Positions 168 through 9,592 of a stretch of 9,592 nt of DNA are shown piece after piece. The notes below the pieces were generated by a model. It was not told the DNA's origin. It saw only the letters and a program-made list of their open reading frames with translations, and did not search any database. A program made the translations under genes and the position numbers. Every line of letters starts with the position of its first letter. Position 1 is the stretch's first letter. Source of the DNA: a virus (Duplodnaviria > Heunggongvirae > Uroviricota > Caudoviricetes). Location: the IMG/VR virus record IMGVR_UViG_2657245439_000005; one strand, 5' to 3'.

Positions 168-362
168 TTAATCAATCACTCCCGCAAATCTGTAAATCTT
201 GTGTGATGCCCATTTATTTGGGCAGGATTTAATATCAGGATCTGGAAAGTCAGGCCTGTATTTCTGGCCAGTTCTCCTGTTTACGCTGTTCCAGCGAAGA
301 ACTGTCGATACTGAAACACCACAGAAATCGGCGACTTGTTTAGTTGTCATTAAGTTGTTCAT
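168..362 (-). CDS. AlpA-family / excisionase-like small DNA-binding protein (64 aa)
   Basis: ORF ending with TAA at 168-170. Translation has the AlpA/Xis-type HTH pattern (TKQVADFCGVSVSTVLRW ... DFPDP ... NKWASHKI). Start overlaps the stop of the upstream DUF551 gene (TAATG). Last gene of the leftward operon. Confidence 0.6.
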   Translation of the reverse strand: MNNLMTTKQVADFCGVSVSTVLRWNSVNRRTGQKYRPDFPDPDIKSCPNKWASHKIYRFAGVID

Positions 363-982
363 TACTTCACCTCCTGCGGCGGCTCCGGTAGCGGCATCCA
401 GTGGGTTACTTTCGATGCCGGTTCTTCCCCATTGTCAGTAACTGCCCACCATTTGTTTCTCGAACAATCGTAATACCCTTCGAAGGTATCGTACTCAGTC
501 CAGCCGTAAGACTTACCCCAACACCAAACATACTGTTTATCGTTCGGCATTCGCTCACTACAGCTTATCCAACCATCCGGAGTTACCGGAGAGTTGCCCG
601 ACAGCTCGTTCAACTTGTAAGTCTGGCTTACAGGTTCGGCACCATTAAGCATGGCGGCGCGGCAGGCGTTCCAGCCTTCATCAAAGCCGACTATGCCATT
701 ATTTAAAGACGGACGAGCATCTGGCACCACCGGCACTGGCTTGGCTATATATAGCGGCTGAACATACCAGCCCTTTGATAACCAACTGTCAGCAATGTTT
801 TTACTCCTCGTTATTGCCGGAATACCTAAGCCATTTTCTGAATGCAGCCATGCCACCGGCTCCTCTTCTAGCGATGCCAGAGCAATTTCATAAGCACGGC
901 GCTCAATATCGTCTCGAACCTCTAGGCTGCTGATTCGTTCTTTGATTTCTTTAATCAGTTCTTTATTGGTAAATGTGGTCAT
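362..982 (-). CDS. DUF551-family phage protein (206 aa)
   Basis: C-terminus carries the DUF551 signature (W-rich block ending VTHWMPLPEPP). TAATG overlap with the upstream gene at 980-984. Confidence 0.75.
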   Translation of the reverse strand: MTTFTNKELIKEIKERISSLEVRDDIERRAYEIALASLEEEPVAWLHSENGLGIPAITRSKNIADSWLSKGWYVQPLYIAKPVPVVPDARPSLNNGIVGFDEGWNACRAAMLNGAEPVSQTYKLNELSGNSPVTPDGWISCSERMPNDKQYVWCWGKSYGWTEYDTFEGYYDCSRNKWWAVTDNGEEPASKVTHWMPLPEPPQEVK

Positions 983-1344
983 TATGCTCCAGCCTCCGGC
1001 GCTTTTGGCATTACTGCCCAGTGAGTGATATTGAAGTTTTCAAGGTCCCCGACCTGAAATGTCCACTGCCATTCTCCGGTTTCTTTTTGTCCCCAGGTGT
1101 ACCAGAGAGAACGCCAGCCAATCAGCCAGCCTTCTCCGTTAGCATCAAATAACAGAACACTTTCATTTGCTGGTGGCAGTTCAGCTGACACTGGTATTAT
1201 TTTGTTTTCCAGTGCCGCACATTTAGCTTCAAGCGCGTCGAATTTACGTACCAGGTACTCAGCATTTGTTTCGTTCACTTTCAGATCTCGCGGTACACAT
1301 TTCCCGCGAAGAAACCCTTCCATTTCGAAAACATTCATGCGCAT
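982..1344 (-). CDS. Small DUF551-like phage protein (120 aa; YfdS-like by size and position)
   Basis: C-terminal ITHWAVMPKAP resembles the DUF551 C-terminus. An alternative start at 1338 would form an ATGA overlap with the upstream HD gene stop. Confidence 0.65.
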   Translation of the reverse strand: MRMNVFEMEGFLRGKCVPRDLKVNETNAEYLVRKFDALEAKCAALENKIIPVSAELPPANESVLLFDANGEGWLIGWRSLWYTWGQKETGEWQWTFQVGDLENFNITHWAVMPKAPEAGA

Positions 1345-1871
1345 TTGCGTAACTCCGATAACTCGTTAAAACGTTCCATAAACATCCCGTAGGCATGGCT
1401 AGGTGCCAGTGGAATCACGTTGAACATCTCTGTTGCCGGGATGCCTTCCAGTACAGGCCAGAAAGAGCCATCATCAAGCCCGAGATCGCGGCGTTCGGTT
1501 GCCAGCATGATAAGATCGGCATATTTCACGGGCGTACTCATAACTGGGGGTAACCCGTATTTCTCACGGATTACGGCGTCAATTTTTTCTTCCATCCGTT
1601 TATAGTCAGGAAGAAGGCGTTTCAGTGGAGCGGGAATATCCTGGCAATACGCTTCTGTTGCATCATGCATTAACGCTTCAAAAGCAAATTCCTGCGGCAC
1701 CAGCTGGCTGCAAAGCACCGCATGTTGGGCGACACTGTAGAAGTGAGAAAGATGACCGGCAAAGCGGCAGATATTTGAAAGGGAAACCGCGATATCGTTA
1801 ATCACGATGTTGTCTTTATTTATCTTGTCATAATAAAAATGCTTCCCGGAAAAAGTTTTAATAAATGACAT
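1335..1871 (-). CDS. yfdR: HD-domain phosphohydrolase (178 aa; YfdR-like 5'-deoxynucleotidase family)
   Basis: HD motif (LMHDATEAY) and an upstream His pair (HLSHFYSVAQH). Chosen start is the ATG at 1871-1869 with a GGAG 7 nt upstream; the longer ORF to 1898 starts with GTG and has no RBS. Size and position match my recollection of CPS-53 YfdR (178 aa). Confidence 0.8.
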   Translation of the reverse strand: MSFIKTFSGKHFYYDKINKDNIVINDIAVSLSNICRFAGHLSHFYSVAQHAVLCSQLVPQEFAFEALMHDATEAYCQDIPAPLKRLLPDYKRMEEKIDAVIREKYGLPPVMSTPVKYADLIMLATERRDLGLDDGSFWPVLEGIPATEMFNVIPLAPSHAYGMFMERFNELSELRKCA

Positions 1872-1964
1872 TTTGTTCTCCACGTATATGCGCTGCACCG
1901 CGCTGAGTTTGGGTAAAAGGAAGCCCTCACCATCCGGTGATTATTGAGTTAATTACGTTTCCAT

Positions 1965-1986
1965 AAATGCCCCCGCAGGGGCATTT
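1965..1986 (-). terminator. Perfect hairpin AAATGCCCC-cgca-GGGGCATTT between the 274-aa gene stop and the HD gene start; possible attenuator
   Basis: 9-bp stem, 4-nt loop, read directly. Only a short T/A flank on either strand, so terminator strength is uncertain. Confidence 0.35.
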
Positions 1987-1998
1987 GCAGTAATGATA

Positions 1999-2823
1999 TC
2001 AGGCGGTGAAAGTACCAATAAAGGTTTCTACTTTGCTGTCTTTGAATTTCTCAACAAGCAGATCACGAAATTCGTTAGCCATATCTTCCTGCACCGCTTC
2101 CAGCTGAATAATGCGCAGAACCAGTACAGGACGATCGCCAGTGATAATGCTGAGGCGTAATTTAAACGGACGTTCTTTCAGACCTTCAAACGGAACGCAT
2201 TTAAATTCAAATGCCACTGGCATAATGTCTTTGGTCTTCGCTTCGACAGACTCCATCAGGGAGCGTTTGCCGCTGAAGTCATTATCTTCAAAATCAGCGG
2301 TCTGGTTTGCTTCAATCGTGATTTTACGGACAGCCGCAGCCGCTTTTGTTGCCTGGATAGCGTCACCATTAGCATCAAAACCCACAAGGTAGTCGGCCCA
2401 GTCTTCAATCCATTCTGCCAGTGACTTCTGGGAGTTACGCTCGCTGTTAACAGACAACAGTGCAGAGAACGGTGCTGTCTTTTTCAGTTTGAGAGTGGCG
2501 GTGTTATCTGCGTGACCTGGTTCATCAATAGTACCCAGGTTAAGCACACTGACGGCACGCATATTATCAGCATCGATAAAGCAGCGGGTGCCTTCATCTG
2601 CAAGATCTTTAGAATAACGGGTAAAGTCATCGATGCTGGCAGTGGAAAGCGCACCACGGAAACGGAAGCGATTTAAATTAAATTTTTCCAGATCATGAAT
2701 GCGGAAATTCTCAGGCAATGCTACAGCATCGGCACCAATCTTACTGATAATTTCATTAACACCCTGAGCAGAAATAAGAGCATGGATTTGATTAATTGCG
2801 GTTGCGTCTAAGTTCTGAGACAT
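1999..2823 (-). CDS. yfdQ: YfdQ-like phage protein (274 aa; DUF2303 family as recalled)
   Basis: 274-aa ORF with GAGGA 6 nt upstream of the ATG at 2823. Length and position next to the HD gene match the CPS-53 yfdQ-yfdR arrangement as I recall it. No motif was independently confirmed. Confidence 0.7.
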
Positions 2824-2888
2824 AATAAGTCCTCACTATATAAAGATATTCAGTGATGAGATAAATAATCAGTTAATTAAGAACGATA

Positions 2889-3251
2889 TTAATGACCTGC
2901 TGCGCGTAGTTTTTCGTCAGGTTCACCGGCAAGAGTCAGTAATTGTCCCTGGTCTTCCTGCAGAATAGTCAGGCGACCACCGCGATTGACATACATCGGC
3001 GTTTCGGTGGTGTCTTCTTCGGAAATTTTCCCGCGGTTAGTCGGGCGAACATATGAGAGTTTGTGTTTGATTTTCACACGGTTCTCATCAAATGGTTCGA
3101 TTTCCAGGTTGAGTGAGACCTTACCTTTGGTTTTCGTGTTCATCACACCGGAAGCGACTTCACTGAGAACTGCGCCGATTTTGGTTTCAAATACGCCGCC
3201 GTCCAGCTCCCCGATAAATGCCTGCACATCAGTACTGCGTTCGCTAGCCAT
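2889..3251 (-). CDS. First gene of the leftward operon, 120-aa phage protein (YfdP-like by size and position)
   Basis: Internal ATG at 3251-3249 is preceded by AGGAG (minus strand reads aggagcagcaaaATG). The longer 197-aa ORF to 3482 has no RBS and its extension looks non-coding. Confidence 0.7.
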   Translation of the reverse strand: MASERSTDVQAFIGELDGGVFETKIGAVLSEVASGVMNTKTKGKVSLNLEIEPFDENRVKIKHKLSYVRPTNRGKISEEDTTETPMYVNRGGRLTILQEDQGQLLTLAGEPDEKLRAAGH

Positions 3252-3386
3252 TTTGCTGCTCCTCATCATATCGACCCTGCAAGGTCGGTTGGTTTCTCCA
3301 CAAAACAGAGAAGAACACCTGCGGTGGCAGCCGCCCGGATGGATTGGGTTATGAGCCCGTCGTCCGGTGATGCTCTTCTCTGTTTT

Positions 3387-3434
3387 ATAAAAAGAGCGGT
3401 ACCAGCCGGAAGCAAGTGTACAAACTGGTACCGC
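3387..3434 (-). terminator. Terminator-like hairpin in the left-operon leader: 10-bp arms GCGGTACCAG / CTGGTACCGC with a 19-nt loop, followed on the minus strand by TCTTTTTAT
   Basis: Arms at 3396-3405 and 3425-3434 are exact reverse complements; the U-rich tract follows on the minus strand. The loop is large for a canonical intrinsic terminator. Confidence 0.3.
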
Positions 3435-3535
3435 CAAAGCAGTGGCTGTTGTGGTGGGGTTGTCACTCAGGCGTATGGTCAACCTGACAATCCGGTGTCC
3501 TCAACGGGGAAAGAGTAACCCAGCCATACTTACCG

Positions 3536-3572
3536 CCGCGCCATTTCGCGGATGACCACAACGCTGAGAGCA
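3536..3572 (-). promoter_or_regulatory. Candidate nut-like site on the leftward leader: boxA-like TGCTCTCA, then a boxB-like hairpin CCGCG-aaatgg-CGCGG about 13 nt downstream
   Basis: Minus strand reads gTGCTCTCAgcgttgtggtcatCCGCGaaatggCGCGG. This resembles the boxA/boxB layout of lambdoid nut sites but the match to consensus is weak. Confidence 0.2.
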
Positions 3573-3852
3573 CTTAGCCAGTTACGGCACCACACTTTGT
3601 CGCGGCTCCATAAATGCCCTCATCGTTGCACCCTGGTCTCTTCCCAGGCGTCAAACCGGATCGCCACGCTGGTTAGGCGTCTTATCAGCATCATCATTGA
3701 CTTGCACATTCCGGCTACCTGGTTTGTTTGCCCTAGCAAGGAGTGGATTGTTCCCTTTAACGTCCCCAGACCGCTAACGACGCATGTGCCATACGCCGTG
3801 TTACAACCAAATTTTGTTTGAATCTTGCCTGCCTCATGTTTCTTTTGGATAC

Positions 3853-3880
3853 ATTATGTATCTCATGGGTACATTGTCAA
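3853..3880 (-). promoter_or_regulatory. pL-like early-left promoter: -35 TTGACA (plus 3875-3880), 16-bp spacer, -10 CATAAT (plus 3853-3858)
   Basis: Minus strand reads ttttttatacTTGACAatgtacccatgagataCATAATgt. Perfect -35, 5/6 -10. Overlaps an operator-like palindrome. Confidence 0.5.
3856..3874. promoter_or_regulatory. OL-type operator ATGTATC-tcatg-GGTACAT (7-5-7), same architecture as the OR sites
   Basis: Sits between the -10 and -35 of the pL-like promoter. An adjacent palindrome GATACATtATGTATC lies at 3848-3862. Confidence 0.5.
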
Positions 3881-3907
3881 GTATAAAAAAACCTGCCGAA
3901 GCAGGTT
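3881..3907 (-). terminator. Rho-independent terminator immediately after the cI stop
   Basis: Minus strand: 7-bp stem AACCTGC/GCAGGTT with loop TTCG, followed by TTTTTTA. Lies 13 bp past the cI stop codon (3920-3922). Confidence 0.7.
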
Positions 3908-3919
3908 CATAAATATTGA

Positions 3920-4594
3920 TTAGGCCTTTATTGTGTATCTTCTTGGTTTTCCCGAGAAAATCACTGTACCAATTATAGAGCAATTACCGTTAATCTTAAT
4001 GTAAGGCTCAGGCCAGTTTGGGTTTAATGCTTTGAGATAACGCTGTGTTCCATCTTCTATCAATCGCTTGAAGGTGGTTTCGCCTGTATCGTGCATCAAT
4101 GCAATAACGTCGTCACCGTGGCAGGCAGGGACTTCGGGATCAACAAAAATCATGTCTCCAGGGCGGTACTCATCAATCATTGAATCACCAATCACCCGCA
4201 AGATATAAGTCATTTCGCCACAGGGTACAGGGCAGGGATACGTTTCTGCTGTGCTCAAATCAACCTCAGAATAGCCAACTTCTTTCCATGCTCCGGCCTG
4301 TACCCATGATATGACAGGGACTAACGTTATTTGTTTGTTAGTGATTGAAACATCAGGTTTTTTTGTGATGTTCGTTGTCTGGTGTTCTTGATCAAGCCAT
4401 CCGACAGGCAGGTCGAAACATTTTTCGATGTGCCGTGCCATGCTGTCACCGATATTTTTAGTAGCGCCATCCCCCATAAACCTGCTGGTTTGGGTTGGCT
4501 CGCGATCAATCATGGTGGCAAAGGATGAATTTCCGCCAACACCATCTCTCAGTTTTCTGGCGTTAGACCGCCGGATGTCATGGATTGTTTTCAT
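3920..4594 (-). CDS. cI: CI-type prophage repressor, HTH N-domain plus LexA-like S24 peptidase C-domain (224 aa)
   Basis: C-terminal half has the S24 autopeptidase signature (GDSM serine, downstream Lys in TFKRL) and a candidate Ala-Gly cleavage site (VQAGAW). Divergent from the cro-like gene; 224 aa as I recall for e14 CohE. Confidence 0.9.
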   Translation of the reverse strand: MKTIHDIRRSNARKLRDGVGGNSSFATMIDREPTQTSRFMGDGATKNIGDSMARHIEKCFDLPVGWLDQEHQTTNITKKPDVSITNKQITLVPVISWVQAGAWKEVGYSEVDLSTAETYPCPVPCGEMTYILRVIGDSMIDEYRPGDMIFVDPEVPACHGDDVIALMHDTGETTFKRLIEDGTQRYLKALNPNWPEPYIKINGNCSIIGTVIFSGKPRRYTIKA

Positions 4595-4600
4595 AACGAA

Positions 4601-4629
4601 ATTAAAACCTTTGTACCGATAAGGTACAA
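4601..4629 (-). promoter_or_regulatory. Candidate pRM for cI: -10 TTTAAT (plus 4601-4606) ending 6 nt before the cI ATG, with a weak -35 inside OR-a
   Basis: Minus strand reads cTTGTACcttatcggtacaaaggtTTTAATttcgttATG. This would give a near-leaderless cI mRNA, as for lambda pRM. Confidence 0.3.
4611..4629. promoter_or_regulatory. Operator OR-a, perfect palindrome TTGTACC-gataa-GGTACAA
   Basis: 19-bp perfect dyad (7-5-7) in the cI-cro intergenic region. Confidence 0.6.
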
Positions 4630-4634
4630 GTATC

Positions 4635-4662
4635 TTGAAGGTTCATTTCAATCATGTAATAT
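4635..4662 (+). promoter_or_regulatory. Candidate pR for cro: -35 TTGAAG (4635-4640), 16-bp spacer, -10 TAATAT (4657-4662)
   Basis: Hexamers read directly. The predicted start site falls inside OR-b. Confidence 0.45.
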
Positions 4663-4679
4663 GTATACCGGAGGTACAT
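4661..4679. promoter_or_regulatory. Operator OR-b, imperfect 7-5-7 dyad ATGTATA-ccgga-GGTACAT
   Basis: Shares the GGTACA(T/A) half-site with OR-a and OL. Overlaps the pR -10/start region and the cro RBS. Confidence 0.5.
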
Positions 4680-4916: not shown

Positions 4917-5480
4917 ATGAGGCTAACCGTGGGTAAGTATCACTGGAAAGTAGAAAAACAGCCTGAGTGGTACGTGAAAGCTGTCAGAAAAACTATCGCA
5001 GCGTTGCCGGGTGGTTACGCTGAAGCAGCTGACTGGCTGGATGTAACAGAGAACGCATTATTTAACCGCCTTCGTGCCGATGGCGATCAGATTTTCCCGC
5101 TGGGATGGGCAATGGTTTTACAGCGCGCGGCTGGCACTCACTACATTGCGGATGCTGTCGCACAGTCTGCTGGTGGGGTGTTCGTATCGCTTCCTGAAAT
5201 TGAGGAAGTAGAGAACGCCGATATAAACCAGCGCCTGCTGGAAGTCATCGAACAGATCGGGAATTACTCAAAGCAGATTCGTTCGGCAATCGAAGATGGG
5301 GTCGTGGAGCCACACGAGCAGACAGCAATTAATGATGAGTTGTATCTGTCAATTTCGAAGCTCCAAGAGCATGCAGCACTGGTCTACAAAATCTTTTGCG
5401 CTCCAGAAAAGAGTGACGCCCGCGAGTGTGCAGCTCCGGGCGTCGTGGCGTTTTGTGTCTGTGGAGAAACTAACGCATGA
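4917..5480 (+). CDS. CII-like / YdaT-family phage regulator (187 aa), in the position of e14 ymfL
   Basis: Second gene after cro. N-terminal segment (PGGYAEAADWLDVTENALFNRLR) looks like a CII-type HTH. Family assignment is from memory. An alternative GTG start at 4929 has a better SD. Stop overlaps the next gene (ATGA at 5477-5480). Confidence 0.65.
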   Translation: MRLTVGKYHWKVEKQPEWYVKAVRKTIAALPGGYAEAADWLDVTENALFNRLRADGDQIFPLGWAMVLQRAAGTHYIADAVAQSAGGVFVSLPEIEEVENADINQRLLEVIEQIGNYSKQIRSAIEDGVVEPHEQTAINDELYLSISKLQEHAALVYKIFCAPEKSDARECAAPGVVAFCVCGETNA

Positions 5481-6313
5481 ACAGTTTAACGGCAAATAAC
5501 CGTTTGTCGCAACAGCTGGTGGTCAGTGTCGCTGAACACCTGTTGTTACGGCATGAATGCAGATTACCAAATCACCTGGCTGTAAGTAACCACAGAGAAC
5601 TTTACCTGACTGTGGGGGGCGAGTTGTGCGGGAACTTAACCGCTGGTTTCGTGACGGAAGAGGGCTTTATGTCCATGTTATTCGTTGGGAACCAGAAACA
5701 CAGCGCGTTATCTATCTTCGCAAAGACTACCCGCATGAGTGCTTTAGTCCTTTGTGGAAATTCAGGCGTGATTTTGTTGAGTGTGAAGGACCACCAGCAC
5801 ATTGATTCTGCCATTCCGGGACGTTACACTGTTCAGGCACCTTATAAAGCGGGTGACGGGATTGGCGTCCTGGAAATGTTATCGGCGATATATGACGCGC
5901 CAGCGTCTTTTTTATCGTCTGCGTCTGTGCACACCCAAATTATGGTGGGCTGGACGGGGGCACCGAAAGGTGCGCCGGTTTCCGATAACGCCGGTTACGC
6001 CAACCCCGTTCAGTTCACCACCAGCGAAATTGGCGTTTCCGGTGGTGAAGGTAATTCACTGTTATCGGAGGCTGCCATCATGGCTACTGTCCCAGCCCTC
6101 ACTCGTCTGAATGATGAAGACTTACATAAACTCAGTTATGTAACAACTGCACTACGTGCTCTGCGCAAGGTAACTCTTTCGGATCCGCAGGCGCATCAGG
6201 TTTTGGTAGAAACCCTTCTTAACTTGCAGGCTGAACGTATTCGTCTGGCGGATAAGGCTAATTTTCATATTCACCGTCTCCTGAATATCAGCGGAGGGCA
6301 TCGTCATGCTTAA
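5477..6313 (+). CDS. Hypothetical protein (278 aa), unassigned
   Basis: Long ORF coupled at both ends (ATGA at 5477; 8-nt overlap with the next gene). Weak GGAG 10 nt upstream. C-terminal half has a Gly/Ala/Pro-rich linker then a helical-looking tail. The N-terminal third is ambiguous because of a competing frame (see findings). Confidence 0.5.
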   Translation: MNSLTANNRLSQQLVVSVAEHLLLRHECRLPNHLAVSNHRELYLTVGGELCGNLTAGFVTEEGFMSMLFVGNQKHSALSIFAKTTRMSALVLCGNSGVILLSVKDHQHIDSAIPGRYTVQAPYKAGDGIGVLEMLSAIYDAPASFLSSASVHTQIMVGWTGAPKGAPVSDNAGYANPVQFTTSEIGVSGGEGNSLLSEAAIMATVPALTRLNDEDLHKLSYVTTALRALRKVTLSDPQAHQVLVETLLNLQAERIRLADKANFHIHRLLNISGGHRHA

Positions 6314-6542: not shown

Positions 6543-7369
6543 GTATGGAGCTGATGGTTAAAGCGATGAAAATTCGAGTGGGTAATCCATTGCGAAAACT
6601 GGTTCTGATCAAGCTGGCTGATAATGCCAGCGATCAGGGTGAGTGCTGGCCCAGCTACCAGCATATTGCTGACCAGTGCGAGATTAGCAAACGTTCTGTG
6701 ATGAATCATATTGCGGCCCTTTGTGATTCCGGGCTGGTAAAAAAAGTCACCCGGAAAGGTGAAAAAGGTAACTCAAGTAATATCTATCTCCTTCATCTTG
6801 ATGGTGCAGGAGATTCACTAGGGGGTAGTGCAAATAATTCACTATCTGGTGCAGCAAATTCACCAGGTAGTGCAGGAGTTGCACCAGGGGGTGGTGCAGG
6901 AGATTCACCCAGAACCAGTCACTCTTTTGAACCAGTCAAAGAACCAGTCAAAGAACCAGTCAATGAACCAATAGCTGTTGGTGCATCTGCTGATGAGTCT
7001 GTGCGAGTTCGTTCAAACCGACCGGAATACTCTCCGGAGTTTGAGCAGGCATGGCTGGCATACCCCAAACGTGCTGGTGGCAATTCAAAATCTGCAGCCT
7101 TCAAAGCCTGGAAAGCCCGTTTGAATGAGGGGGTAAAACCCGAAACCATGCTGGAAGGTGTGAAACGCTACGCGGGCTGGGTATCTGCGATGGGTAACAG
7201 CGGCACACAATTTGTGAAACAGGCTGTCACGTTCTTTGGTCCGGATCGTCATTTCGAAGAATCCTGGGAAGTTCCTGCGGTATCTGCAGCCAGACGCGAG
7301 GACCCGTACTTCAAAGCCAGTTACGACAACGTGGACTACAGCCAGATCCCGGCAGGATTCAGGGGGTAA
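6539..7369 (+). CDS. O-like replication initiator: N-terminal winged-helix DNA-binding domain, repeat-encoded linker, conserved C-terminal domain (276 aa)
   Basis: ATG at 6539 with GGAGG 7 nt upstream (the ORF from 6500 is an unsupported extension). N-terminus (LRKLVLIKLADNASDQGECWPSYQHIADQCEISKRSVMNHIAAL) is HTH-like. The linker is encoded by DNA iterons. C-terminal WLAYPKRAGGNSKSAAFKAWKA block is typical of phage replication organisers as I recall. Confidence 0.8.
   Translation: MSMELMVKAMKIRVGNPLRKLVLIKLADNASDQGECWPSYQHIADQCEISKRSVMNHIAALCDSGLVKKVTRKGEKGNSSNIYLLHLDGAGDSLGGSANNSLSGAANSPGSAGVAPGGGAGDSPRTSHSFEPVKEPVKEPVNEPIAVGASADESVRVRSNRPEYSPEFEQAWLAYPKRAGGNSKSAAFKAWKARLNEGVKPETMLEGVKRYAGWVSAMGNSGTQFVKQAVTFFGPDRHFEESWEVPAVSAARREDPYFKASYDNVDYSQIPAGFRG
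6802..6910. repeat. Five iteron-like direct repeats (consensus about GGT(AG)GTGCA..A.TTCAC, 21-25 bp period) inside the O-like gene; putative replication origin
   Basis: TGGTGCAGGAGATTCAC occurs exactly at 6802-6818 and 6892-6908, with three degenerate copies between. Same arrangement as lambda ori iterons inside O. Confidence 0.6.
6911..6970. repeat. Tandem 12-bp repeats GAACCAGTCA(A/C)(A/T), about 4.5 copies, adjacent to the iterons
   Basis: Read directly. Encodes EPVKEPVKEPVNEP in the O-like linker. Confidence 0.6.
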
Positions 7370-7371
7370 TC

Positions 7372-7860
7372 ATGAGTCTTTTGAATGAAGTTCAGAAATT
7401 CATTGAAGCCCATCCGGGGTGTACTTCCGCAGACATTGCGGATGCTTTTGCAGATTACTCACGGCAGCGCGTTCTGCAGTCAGCAAGCAAGTTACGTCAG
7501 AGTGGGCGTGTGGCTCACCGTTGTGAAGGAGATACACGCAGACATTTCCCGCGCCTGACTGAGAGAGCGCAAGAGCCGGAACCACAACCAGTTCGTGAAA
7601 CCAGACCTGTGCGCAATTTCTATGTCGGCACTAACGATCCCCGGGTGATTTTATGCCTGACCCGCCAGGCTGAAGAACTGGAGTCGAGGGGGTTATACCG
7701 TCGTGCTGCAACGGTGTGGATGGCGGCATTCCGTGAAAGTCACTCCCAGCCAGAACGAAACAACTTTCTGGCGCGTCGTGAGCTGTGCTTACGGAAAAGC
7801 AGCAAGCGCGCTGTATCTGGTGATGAATGGTATCTGTCAGGGAATTACGTGGGGGCTTAA
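7372..7860 (+). CDS. PerC-like (ANR-type) transcriptional regulator with an N-terminal winged-helix-like domain (162 aa)
   Basis: C-terminal AEELESRGLYRRAATVWMAAFRES matches the PerC-type motif as I recall it. ATG 3 nt after the O-like stop, with a G-rich SD. Confidence 0.65.
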   Translation: MSLLNEVQKFIEAHPGCTSADIADAFADYSRQRVLQSASKLRQSGRVAHRCEGDTRRHFPRLTERAQEPEPQPVRETRPVRNFYVGTNDPRVILCLTRQAEELESRGLYRRAATVWMAAFRESHSQPERNNFLARRELCLRKSSKRAVSGDEWYLSGNYVGA

Positions 7861-8186
7861 TGACGACGTTAACTCAATGCCAGCAGCAGGTGCTGGATAT
7901 GCTGATTTCTTACCAGCAAGAACGTGGCTTTCCGCCAACCAATCAGGAGGTGGCAACCATGCTGGGATACCGTTCGGTGAATGCAGCGGTGGAGCATCTT
8001 CGCGCACTGGAGAAAAAAGGCGTCATCACGATAAAGCGTGGCGTGGCCCGGGGGATAACGCTTCATACCGCGGTGAAGGACGACGACAGCGAGGCGGTCG
8101 GGATTATCCGCTCACTGCTTGCCGGTGAGGAAAACGCCAGGCTGTGTGCAGCCCACTGGTTACATGAGAGGGGCATGAAAGTATGA
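7860..8186 (+). CDS. LexA N-terminal DNA-binding-domain homolog lacking the S24 peptidase domain (108 aa)
   Basis: Residues about 3-70 align with the E. coli LexA N-terminal domain (LT.RQQ.V.D.I......G.PPT..E.A..LG.RS.NAA.EHL.AL..KGVI.I..G..RGI.L). Start overlaps the upstream stop (TAATG); stop overlaps the rusA start (ATGA). The ORF from 7827 is an in-frame upstream extension. Confidence 0.75.
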   Translation: MTTLTQCQQQVLDMLISYQQERGFPPTNQEVATMLGYRSVNAAVEHLRALEKKGVITIKRGVARGITLHTAVKDDDSEAVGIIRSLLAGEENARLCAAHWLHERGMKV

Positions 8187-9401: not shown

Positions 9402-9496
9402 GGTGACCGTGAGAGCACTACTGACCCCTGAAATTGCCCCGCGTATGGGGATCGTATTGTTCAGACCAGGTTCAGAGCTGATGCCCCTGTTTATGC

Positions 9497-9515
9497 CTGT
9501 CTCTTATACACAAGT
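9497..9515 (+). mobile_element. 19-mer CTGTCTCTTATACACAAGT matching the Tn5/IS50 outside-end inverted repeat at 18/19 positions; possible IS terminal repeat
   Basis: Compared with the Tn5 OE (CTGACTCTTATACACAAGT) from memory; only position 4 differs. The sequence to its right does not match the IS50 interior as I recall it. Confidence 0.3.
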
Positions 9516-9540
9516 CCCCGAATCCGGGGATTTGTTATTT
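9515..9540 (+). terminator. Rho-independent terminator after the KilA-N gene
   Basis: Stem TCCCCG/CGGGGA with loop AATC, followed by TTTGTTATTT. Lies about 115 bp past the KilA-N stop. Confidence 0.6.
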
Positions 9541-9592
9541 CAGCCAAACTGCTTTCAGTTGTTGCGTGTGGCTACGCTTTCCATTCGGTAAT

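Follow-up and report, generated by a model that had tools for sequence, protein, structure and literature searches.

The closest described relatives of the locus analysed here are the yfdP-yfdQ-yfdR-yfdS-yfdT genes of the Escherichia coli K-12 prophage CPS-53 (KpLE1), for which a link to chromosomal replication has been reported (Noguchi & Katayama, 2016; PMC4776307). When supplied in multicopy, yfdQ and yfdR together with either yfdS or yfdT suppress the over-initiation of hda-185, yfdP being dispensable, and the same multicopy set inhibits initiation in wild-type cells (PMC4776307). Purified K-12 YfdR binds DnaA, with Phe46 of DnaA domain I being important for this interaction, and initiation is inhibited in vitro in extracts oversupplied with YfdQRST (PMC4776307). 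Deletion of the K-12 genes gives no replication phenotype; the inhibition phenotype on record comes from multicopy expression only, and the authors themselves allow for an artefact of overexpression (PMC4776307). Drawing a parallel with lambda P, they propose that replication inhibition served the growth of the propagative phage from which the cluster descends, and they note homologues of the cluster in phage SfV (PMC4776307). The YfdR and YfdQRST findings were still cited as valid in 2025 (PMC12122000). The original prediction for the DNA studied here drew on published work in which YfdR binds DnaA and overexpression of the cluster inhibits initiation, and this account of the literature is accurate; the idea of a host-replication takeover by the cluster is thus a hypothesis already published by its authors.

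The likeness to lambda P lies in an early phage protein that binds the host initiator and blocks initiation at oriC. The two proteins differ in how they do so: lambda P binds DnaA domain III and loads the helicase, whereas YfdR is an HD-domain protein, non-homologous to P, that binds domain I at Phe46. As for its distribution, the cluster is common in the early-left operons of lambdoid phages (PMC12315714), and the literature places it also in phages SfV, ST64B and LLS.

Gene layout and comparison with CPS-53

We analysed a window of 9,592 nt, i.e. the whole stretch of DNA available from one IMG/VR record of a Caudoviricetes virus (IMGVR_UViG_2657245439_000005). The features of its leftward operon and of the adjoining control region are listed below, from the repressor gene onwards in the direction of transcription; for proteins with a K-12 counterpart, the number of identical residues in the alignment to E. 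coli K-12 MG1655 is given.

3920..4594, minus strand: cI-type repressor with a Peptidase_S24 autocleavage domain (Pfam PF00717, E 1.5e-26); phrog_4
3889-3908, minus strand: terminator of the cI repressor gene
3853..3880, minus strand: pL-like promoter, TTGACA, 16-nt spacer, CATAAT; 11/12 in a consensus scan
3836-3854 and 3856-3874: two operator-like palindromes (ATGTA-N9-TACAT) lying over the pL-like promoter
3252..3852, minus strand: leader of ~600 nt, with no convincing ORF in the ORF list
2889..3251, minus strand: yfdP orthologue, 120 aa (K-12 YfdP 118/120); phrog_204
1999..2823, minus strand: yfdQ orthologue, 274 aa, DUF2303 (K-12 YfdQ 272/274)
1965..1986, minus strand: stem-loop with a 9-bp stem and a 4-nt loop, directly 3' of yfdQ in the 127-nt gap between yfdQ and yfdR
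1335..1871, minus strand: yfdR orthologue, 178 aa, HD-domain 5'-deoxynucleotidase (K-12 YfdR 175/178)
982..1344, minus strand: yfdS orthologue, 120 aa, DUF551 (K-12 YfdS 119/120)
362..982, minus strand: 206-aa mosaic gene, with a YfdT-like N-terminus and a C-terminal DUF551 domain
168..362, minus strand: excisionase-like gene (xis; phrog_1553 'excisionase', E 6e-36), the last gene of the leftward operon in the window

The operon thus reads yfdP, yfdQ, stem-loop, yfdR, yfdS, DUF551 gene and xis, and its first five ORFs are all intact. In the series yfdR, yfdS, DUF551 gene and xis, every stop codon overlaps or touches the next start: the yfdS start overlaps the yfdR stop by 10 nt, and base 362 is common to the xis start and to the stop codon of the 206-aa gene. 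By contrast with this tight packing, yfdQ is flanked by gaps of 65 nt on the yfdP side and 127 nt on the yfdR side, and a promoter scan of the latter found no internal promoter for yfdR. We placed the start of yfdR at an ATG with a GGAG 8 nt upstream, giving 178 aa; the mechanical ORF starts from a GTG at 1898 and gives 187 aa.

Protein identities of 98-99% bear out the predicted match, in sizes and order, of the yfdQ-yfdR-like module to yfdP-yfdQ-yfdR-yfdS of CPS-53. The prediction of two DUF551 genes behind the 274-aa and 178-aa pair was also correct, as both downstream proteins pass the Pfam profile (PF04448), the 206-aa protein with 65.8 bits and YfdS marginally, with 22.6 bits against a cut-off of 22.0. 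Gene order and sizes agree with the five genes of CPS-53, four of which are orthologous at 98-99%. The fifth is a partial match: K-12 has a 101-aa YfdT and the window a 206-aa DUF551 protein, of which only residues 1-42 match YfdT (95% identity). The window cluster is therefore the orthologue of the yfdPQRS(T) genes that are orphaned in CPS-53.

When the window was compared by BLASTN to the CPS-53 region, homology was confined to 858-3270 (97.9%) and 7294-7863 (94.9%). It breaks 19 nt upstream of the yfdP start codon and, at the other end, 125 nt into the fifth gene (window 858). Since only these two segments are common to both, the K-12 copy is devoid of the leader, the pL-like promoter, the operators and the cI-type repressor, all four of which are present in the window. 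The exact position of this homology break in K-12 is a minor addition of the present analysis.

The early-left control region and its phage relatives

Sites of the form ATGTA-N9-TACAT with at most one mismatch occur three times in the window (3836-3854, 3856-3874 and 4661-4679), versus 0.26 expected by chance. The third copy is perfect and lies in the cI/cro intergenic region, where weaker operator-like sites are found at 4611-4629 and 4628-4646. At the level of consensus sequences, the layout is that of a lambda-type early-left region, with a leftward promoter downstream of cI and operator-like sites recurring at cI/cro, an arrangement similar to that of lambda OL/OR. A promoter is annotated in phage Ayreon at the place equivalent to the pL-like promoter.

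Within the leader, a strong hairpin with a U-tract, CUCUUUUUAU, forms a terminator at ~3390-3435 (-21.2 kcal/mol, z -4.0). For the 411-nt part of the leader upstream of this terminator, the sign of an unusual overall structure was weak (z -1.9), and the notion was dropped. No known RNA family matched the leader or the yfdQ-yfdR gap. Lambda-type operons read through early terminators by means of an N-type antiterminator and a nut site; no N-like gene was found in the leader, where there is only a 26-aa Arg/Lys-rich ORF at 3757-3837, and no antiterminator for the leader terminator was identified.

Rightward of cI, we found a Cro-like gene, a CII-like gene, Ash, an initiator, PerC/YfdN, a protein consisting of a LexA DNA-binding domain only, RusA and KilA-N. 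The initiator gene encodes HTH_36 and DnaD_N-like domains and contains iteron-like repeats at 6824-6875 and 6929-6970. No helicase loader, P-like or DnaC-like, is visible in the 9.6-kb window; the immunity and replication gene set is evidently sufficient, since phage Ayreon carries the same set.

The whole window aligns to Escherichia phage 2H10 (98.3% identity), to phage Ayreon (96.7%, in one piece; recorded host E. coli K12) and to Stx2c-converting phages (96.3%), and the cluster region is 95.8% identical in phage cdtI. Phages of this type have the immunity, replication and yfdPQRS genes in common with the window and show small sequence differences only. Because repressor, operators, leftward promoter and leader are all kept, we read the window copy as a regulated early-left operon, and these elements support a cluster that is regulated and probably functional. 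The original prediction had placed the module in a prophage with an apparently complete immunity and replication region, so that it might be a functional takeover module rather than a cryptic remnant. As regards the region itself this holds, with repressor, operators and promoter present and the same set found in Ayreon. A whole prophage, however, cannot be demonstrated from 9.6 kb, since the nearest chromosomal relatives (98.8%) are defective elements beside yjjG, in which the 206-aa gene is broken and virion or structural genes are lacking.

Of 5,426 complete E. coli genomes searched with a 3-kb query (window 300-3300), 3,943 gave a match, which in 1,565 genomes spanned no less than 80% of the query; in addition, 428 phage records matched. 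Carried by most of these genomes and also by viable phages of known sequence, the cluster is ordinary rather than new. RefSeq already labels the matches in E. coli genomes yfdP, yfdQ and yfdR. The related phage records mostly call the cluster genes hypothetical or misname them, the 206-aa DUF551 protein appearing, for example, as 'valyl-tRNA synthetase'. The cluster, its gene order and its native repressor-controlled context are already known from sequenced, annotated phages. Note that the discovery value is therefore small: the genes, their order, the binding of YfdR to DnaA and the hypothesis of a role at the phage stage are published, and thousands of genomes, as well as sequenced phages, have the same DNA.

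The YfdP-YfdQ pair and the stem-loop behind yfdQ

YfdQ matches the Pfam family DUF2303 (PF10065) with 307.8 bits (cut-off 26.6) over profile positions 2-269 of 269. It is homologous to the protein of PDB entry 9o7m, 'YfdQ Protein' (E 2e-43), which consists of 36 copies of the YfdQ homologue chain and does not contain the neighbouring phage proteins. A Foldseek search of the PDB did not return this entry, and we found no paper citing it. Fold and family searches gave no match that assigns a function to YfdP or YfdQ. A role in anti-phage defence was dropped, none of the five proteins having a PADLOC match.

To describe the composition of the module, we surveyed 80 loci with a YfdQ homologue, taken for the most part from different species, by BLASTP of their ORFs. 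YfdP was found directly upstream of YfdQ in all 79 loci having upstream DNA. The pairing persists even where YfdQ identity has dropped to 41-45%, as in Marinobacter, Hahella, Photobacterium, Kistimonas and Pontibacterium. It is also seen in Xanthomonas phages, where YfdP-YfdQ lies upstream of recombinase, exonuclease and SSB genes and is not accompanied by YfdR; in phage MET23-P3 the adjoining YfdP has 31% identity (E 4e-14). YfdR was encoded downstream of YfdQ in 59 loci out of 80, with another gene inserted between yfdQ and yfdR in five loci. The 21 loci devoid of YfdR include all eight of the most distant, non-Enterobacterales ones, together with Mangrovibacter, some Kosakonia, Rahnella and Xenorhabdus. 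The cluster proteins as such are conserved across many genera. The occurrence of YfdP-YfdQ covers phages of gammaproteobacteria, from Enterobacterales and Vibrionaceae to Marinobacter, Hahella and Xanthomonas podophages.

The original prediction had taken yfdQ and yfdR as the natural unit, which these counts do not uphold: it is YfdP-YfdQ that is invariant, with YfdR often added to it. Because YfdR is facultative and YfdP dispensable, the cluster may not be a single functional module. This invariant pairing with a facultative YfdR is a new addition of the present work. It fits the published genetics awkwardly, in which yfdP is dispensable and yfdQ required.

The hairpin at 1965-1986 reads AAATGCCCC-CGCA-GGGGCATTT, with nine perfect pairs closing a loop of 4 nt; as sense RNA, from the minus strand, it is AAAUGCCCC-UGCG-GGGGCAUUU, followed by AUGGAAACG. 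By our own estimate, perfect stems of this kind are expected by chance ~0.2 times in the whole window and ~0.003 times in the 127-nt gap. Its 44-nt context folds at -16.5 kcal/mol (z ~ -3). The yfdQ-yfdR intergenic region differs from that of K-12 by one base, outside the hairpin, which is itself identical. The perfect hairpin announced between the two genes is thus real, folds as predicted and is conserved. In most Enterobacterales loci, a stem-loop lies 7-23 nt past the yfdQ stop codon, with or without yfdR downstream, and is flanked by a conserved motif, GUGAAGCG. More distant variants from Serratia, Proteus and Morganella keep a stem of different sequence, and U-rich tails follow the stem in the Morganella and Hahella loci.

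Covariation was examined in an alignment of 32 distinct sequences over a 10-pair helix, with the pairing partner slid by 1-3 columns as a control. Standard pairs fill 97.8% of the helix cells versus 37-57% in the slid controls. Compensatory changes occur in four of the ten pairs (AU to UA, UA to AU, GC to CG or AU, and CG to GC or UA), and a covariation score as high as the observed one did not arise in any of 500 shuffles. Sequence and length of the loop vary freely among loci. This covariation support for a stem-loop after yfdQ is a minor addition of the present analysis; a 'terminator' is already annotated at the position of the hairpin in the Ayreon record.

What the element does was considered by comparison with known RNA signals. 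In a canonical intrinsic terminator the GC-rich stem leads into a U-tract, with 5 or more U within 8 nt, whereas the tail here is UUU, made up of the last three bases of the stem, followed by the downstream bases given above, and the terminator scan was silent on the hairpin; a canonical Rho-independent terminator was ruled out for want of a U-tract. A lambda-type boxB/nut site was ruled out as well, the loop varying freely while the stem covaries. In view of the missing U-tract, we read the hairpin as a weak terminator or an mRNA stabiliser, and it may act as a leaky terminator or 3'-end stabiliser that raises YfdP and YfdQ over the distal genes, in agreement with the earlier suggestion that it could set an expression ratio. 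The element is, however, a feature of the yfdQ 3' end rather than of yfdQ and yfdR as a pair.

YfdR and the function of the operon

The profile matches of YfdR are weak to HD-domain Pfam entries and strong to phrog_318, 'deoxyribonucleoside 5' monophosphate phosphatase' (E 2e-109). Residues 21-175 match PDB 2gz4 (hypothetical protein Atu1052) with an E-value of 1.3e-13. E. coli YfbR and Agrobacterium Atu1052 (PDB 2gz4), both HD-domain 5'-deoxynucleotidases, have in common with YfdR the metal/catalytic motif H...HD...E...D, which is intact in the window protein (H50, H69, D70, E73, D78 and D119). Among 53 homologues with identities of 48-98%, each of these residues is kept in at least 97%, so that catalysis by YfdR seems to be under selection. 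The scores for YfbR-like membership are below the cut-offs, 24.4 bits against a gathering threshold of 25.9 for Pfam PF12917 and 20 against 122 for the NCBIfam equivalog NF003009. YfdR is accordingly not the YfbR equivalog but a distinct subfamily, related to YfbR only. Compared to YfbR, a much lower nucleotide affinity has been reported for YfdR, along with its DnaA binding (PMC4776307). The conservation of the HD residues supports an enzymatic role that YfdR may play alongside, or instead of, DnaA binding. From the 98% identity to the K-12 protein, the window YfdR would be predicted both to bind DnaA domain I in a Phe46-dependent manner and to have dNMP phosphatase activity.

The explanation that we favour, with somewhat better than even confidence when all its parts are taken jointly, is that of an early-left (pL-type) accessory operon of a lambdoid temperate phage of the 2H10/Ayreon/cdtI/Stx2c type, orthologous to the CPS-53 genes. 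In a lysogen the operon would stay silent, to be transcribed once the phage is induced or infects a cell. YfdR, differing from the K-12 protein at 3 of 178 residues, would act like its published counterpart: it would bind DnaA domain I via Phe46, be a moderate competitor of DiaA and DnaB and, jointly with YfdQ and one DUF551 protein, lower initiation at oriC, and its dNMP phosphatase activity would be kept at a weak level. The stem-loop after yfdQ, a conserved RNA element, would most likely be a leaky terminator or a 3'-end stabiliser; under either role, YfdP and YfdQ would outnumber the products of the distal genes yfdR-yfdS-DUF551-xis, which are translationally coupled.

Part of the same evidence would suit a YfdR that is mainly a nucleotide-pool enzyme, an HD-domain dNMP phosphohydrolase reshaping or salvaging deoxynucleotides, whose DnaA effects are overexpression side-effects with no role in the phage cycle. 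The near-invariance of the HD residues among the 53 homologues, the naming of YfdR as a deoxynucleotidase in PHROG and RefSeq, and the possible artefact admitted by the 2016 authors together with the absence of a deletion phenotype (PMC4776307) all point this way. We nevertheless hold it to be unlikely, if by no means negligible, given that the purified protein binds DnaA in a Phe46-dependent manner and that YfdQRST-oversupplied extracts inhibit initiation in vitro (PMC4776307); besides, enzymatic and DnaA roles can coexist. That the genes are a decaying remnant without current function, as in K-12, we regard as very improbable. The closest chromosomal matches are indeed prophage remnants with a disrupted 206-aa gene and no virion genes nearby, and the K-12 deletions have no replication phenotype (PMC4776307), but the window has five intact ORFs along with a repressor, a promoter and operators, many genera have conserved versions of the proteins, and the region is present in complete phage genomes, one of them with E. 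coli K12 as its recorded host.

A stronger competitor, to which we give a little less than even chances, is a mosaic of independent early genes, in which YfdP-YfdQ with its 3' hairpin is one unit, possibly concerned with DNA metabolism, and YfdR and the DUF551 proteins are separate accessories placed downstream in enterobacterial phages. It accounts well for a YfdP that adjoins YfdQ wherever upstream DNA is available, down to the most diverged homologues and in Xanthomonas phages devoid of YfdR, for the 21 loci from which YfdR is missing, for a hairpin that follows yfdQ regardless of yfdR, and for the 36 YfdQ-homologue chains of PDB 9o7m, an entry with neither neighbouring protein. Yet yfdQ is needed together with yfdR for the suppression of hda-185 (PMC4776307), which implies some functional link in E. 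coli, and no fold or family match assigns a function to YfdP or YfdQ. Taken further, YfdP-YfdQ and the 3' stem-loop could form a self-contained early-phage system, with a large YfdQ homo-oligomer acting on phage or host DNA metabolism, to which enterobacterial phages would have added YfdR as a coupling to DnaA and oriC shut-off; this extended proposal we find rather doubtful.

For the regulated early-left operon that we favour, the question of whether YfdQRS(T) shuts down oriC at natural expression is one that K-12 cannot settle, because its copy is severed from the promoter. Copies of the window type, and phages Ayreon and 2H10, are the right material for it, since in them the cluster is still under its own, repressor-controlled promoter. 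Experiments on the native operon could draw on two modest additions of the present work, the YfdP-YfdQ pairing and the covarying hairpin.

YfdP–YfdQ adjacency and gene names in phage records

Among the 80 loci encoding YfdQ homologues (L004–L083), which come mostly from different species, yfdP adjoins yfdQ in every one of the 79 that have upstream DNA, and YfdR is found in only 59 of the 80. The same YfdP–YfdQ adjacency is present in Xanthomonas phage MET23-P3 (locus L084, 5529–6783). A structure entry, PDB 9o7m, contains 36 chains of YfdQ from a Xanthomonas phage; no paper was found in the literature citing it.

Two names in public phage records are wrong: the 206-aa DUF551 protein is labelled "valyl-tRNA synthetase" in the records of phage Ayreon (locus L085, 1753–2373) and of phage cdtI, and the MET23-P3 YfdP homologue (L084, 5529–5903) is labelled "translation elongation factor".

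The leader of the early-left operon

Between the pL-like promoter and yfdP lies a long leader:

3252–3852, − strand: leader of ~600 nt without a convincing ORF

It carries a terminator at ~3390–3435, with a strong hairpin and a U-tract (−21.2 kcal/mol, z −4.0), and, directly past the promoter, a 26-aa Arg/Lys-rich ORF (3757–3837; MRQARFKQNLVVTRRMAHASLAVWGR). No antitermination factor or antitermination RNA was identified within 3252–3852. The entire leader region, present in the window, is absent from the CPS-53 prophage copy of the cluster in E. coli K-12.

Features of the early-right operon

The following features were located on the early-right side:

5837–5913, + strand: isrK Hfq-binding RNA, Rfam match above the gathering score (55.4 bits)
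5938–6025, + strand: C4 antisense RNA, Rfam match above the gathering score (82.8 bits)
6824–6875, + strand: tandem repeat, 21 nt × 2.5 copies, within the replication-initiator gene
6929–6970, + strand: tandem repeat, 12 nt × 3.5 copies, within the same gene, encoding EPVKEPVKEPVNEP
7827–8186, + strand: 119-aa protein with only a LexA DNA-binding domain (PF01726, E 3e-19)

At the right end of the window, the best E. coli and phage matches all stop at 9496, leaving the final ~96 bases (9497–9592) uncovered; this segment is probably a mosaic junction past the KilA-N gene. The repeats of the initiator gene resemble iterons, in the manner of lambda O. The next gene is the PerC-like yfdN, and none for a helicase loader lies downstream of the initiator. 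The 119-aa protein lacks the S24 cleavage domain and could be an uncleavable LexA mimic that the early-right operon encodes.

The mechanically called 278-aa "Ash" ORF (5477–6313, + strand) overlaps a DUF4222 ORF in a different frame (5626–5805, + strand, E 1e-13). Because RefSeq relatives are annotated with a DUF4222 gene and a shorter ash gene of 546 nt, as opposed to the single long ORF of the window, the "Ash" ORF has probably been called too long on the 5′ side. This long ORF encloses both Rfam matches (5837–6025, + strand), and the presence of isrK and C4 inside it suggests that the early-right operon contains a P1/P7 immI-type antirepressor unit under RNA control.
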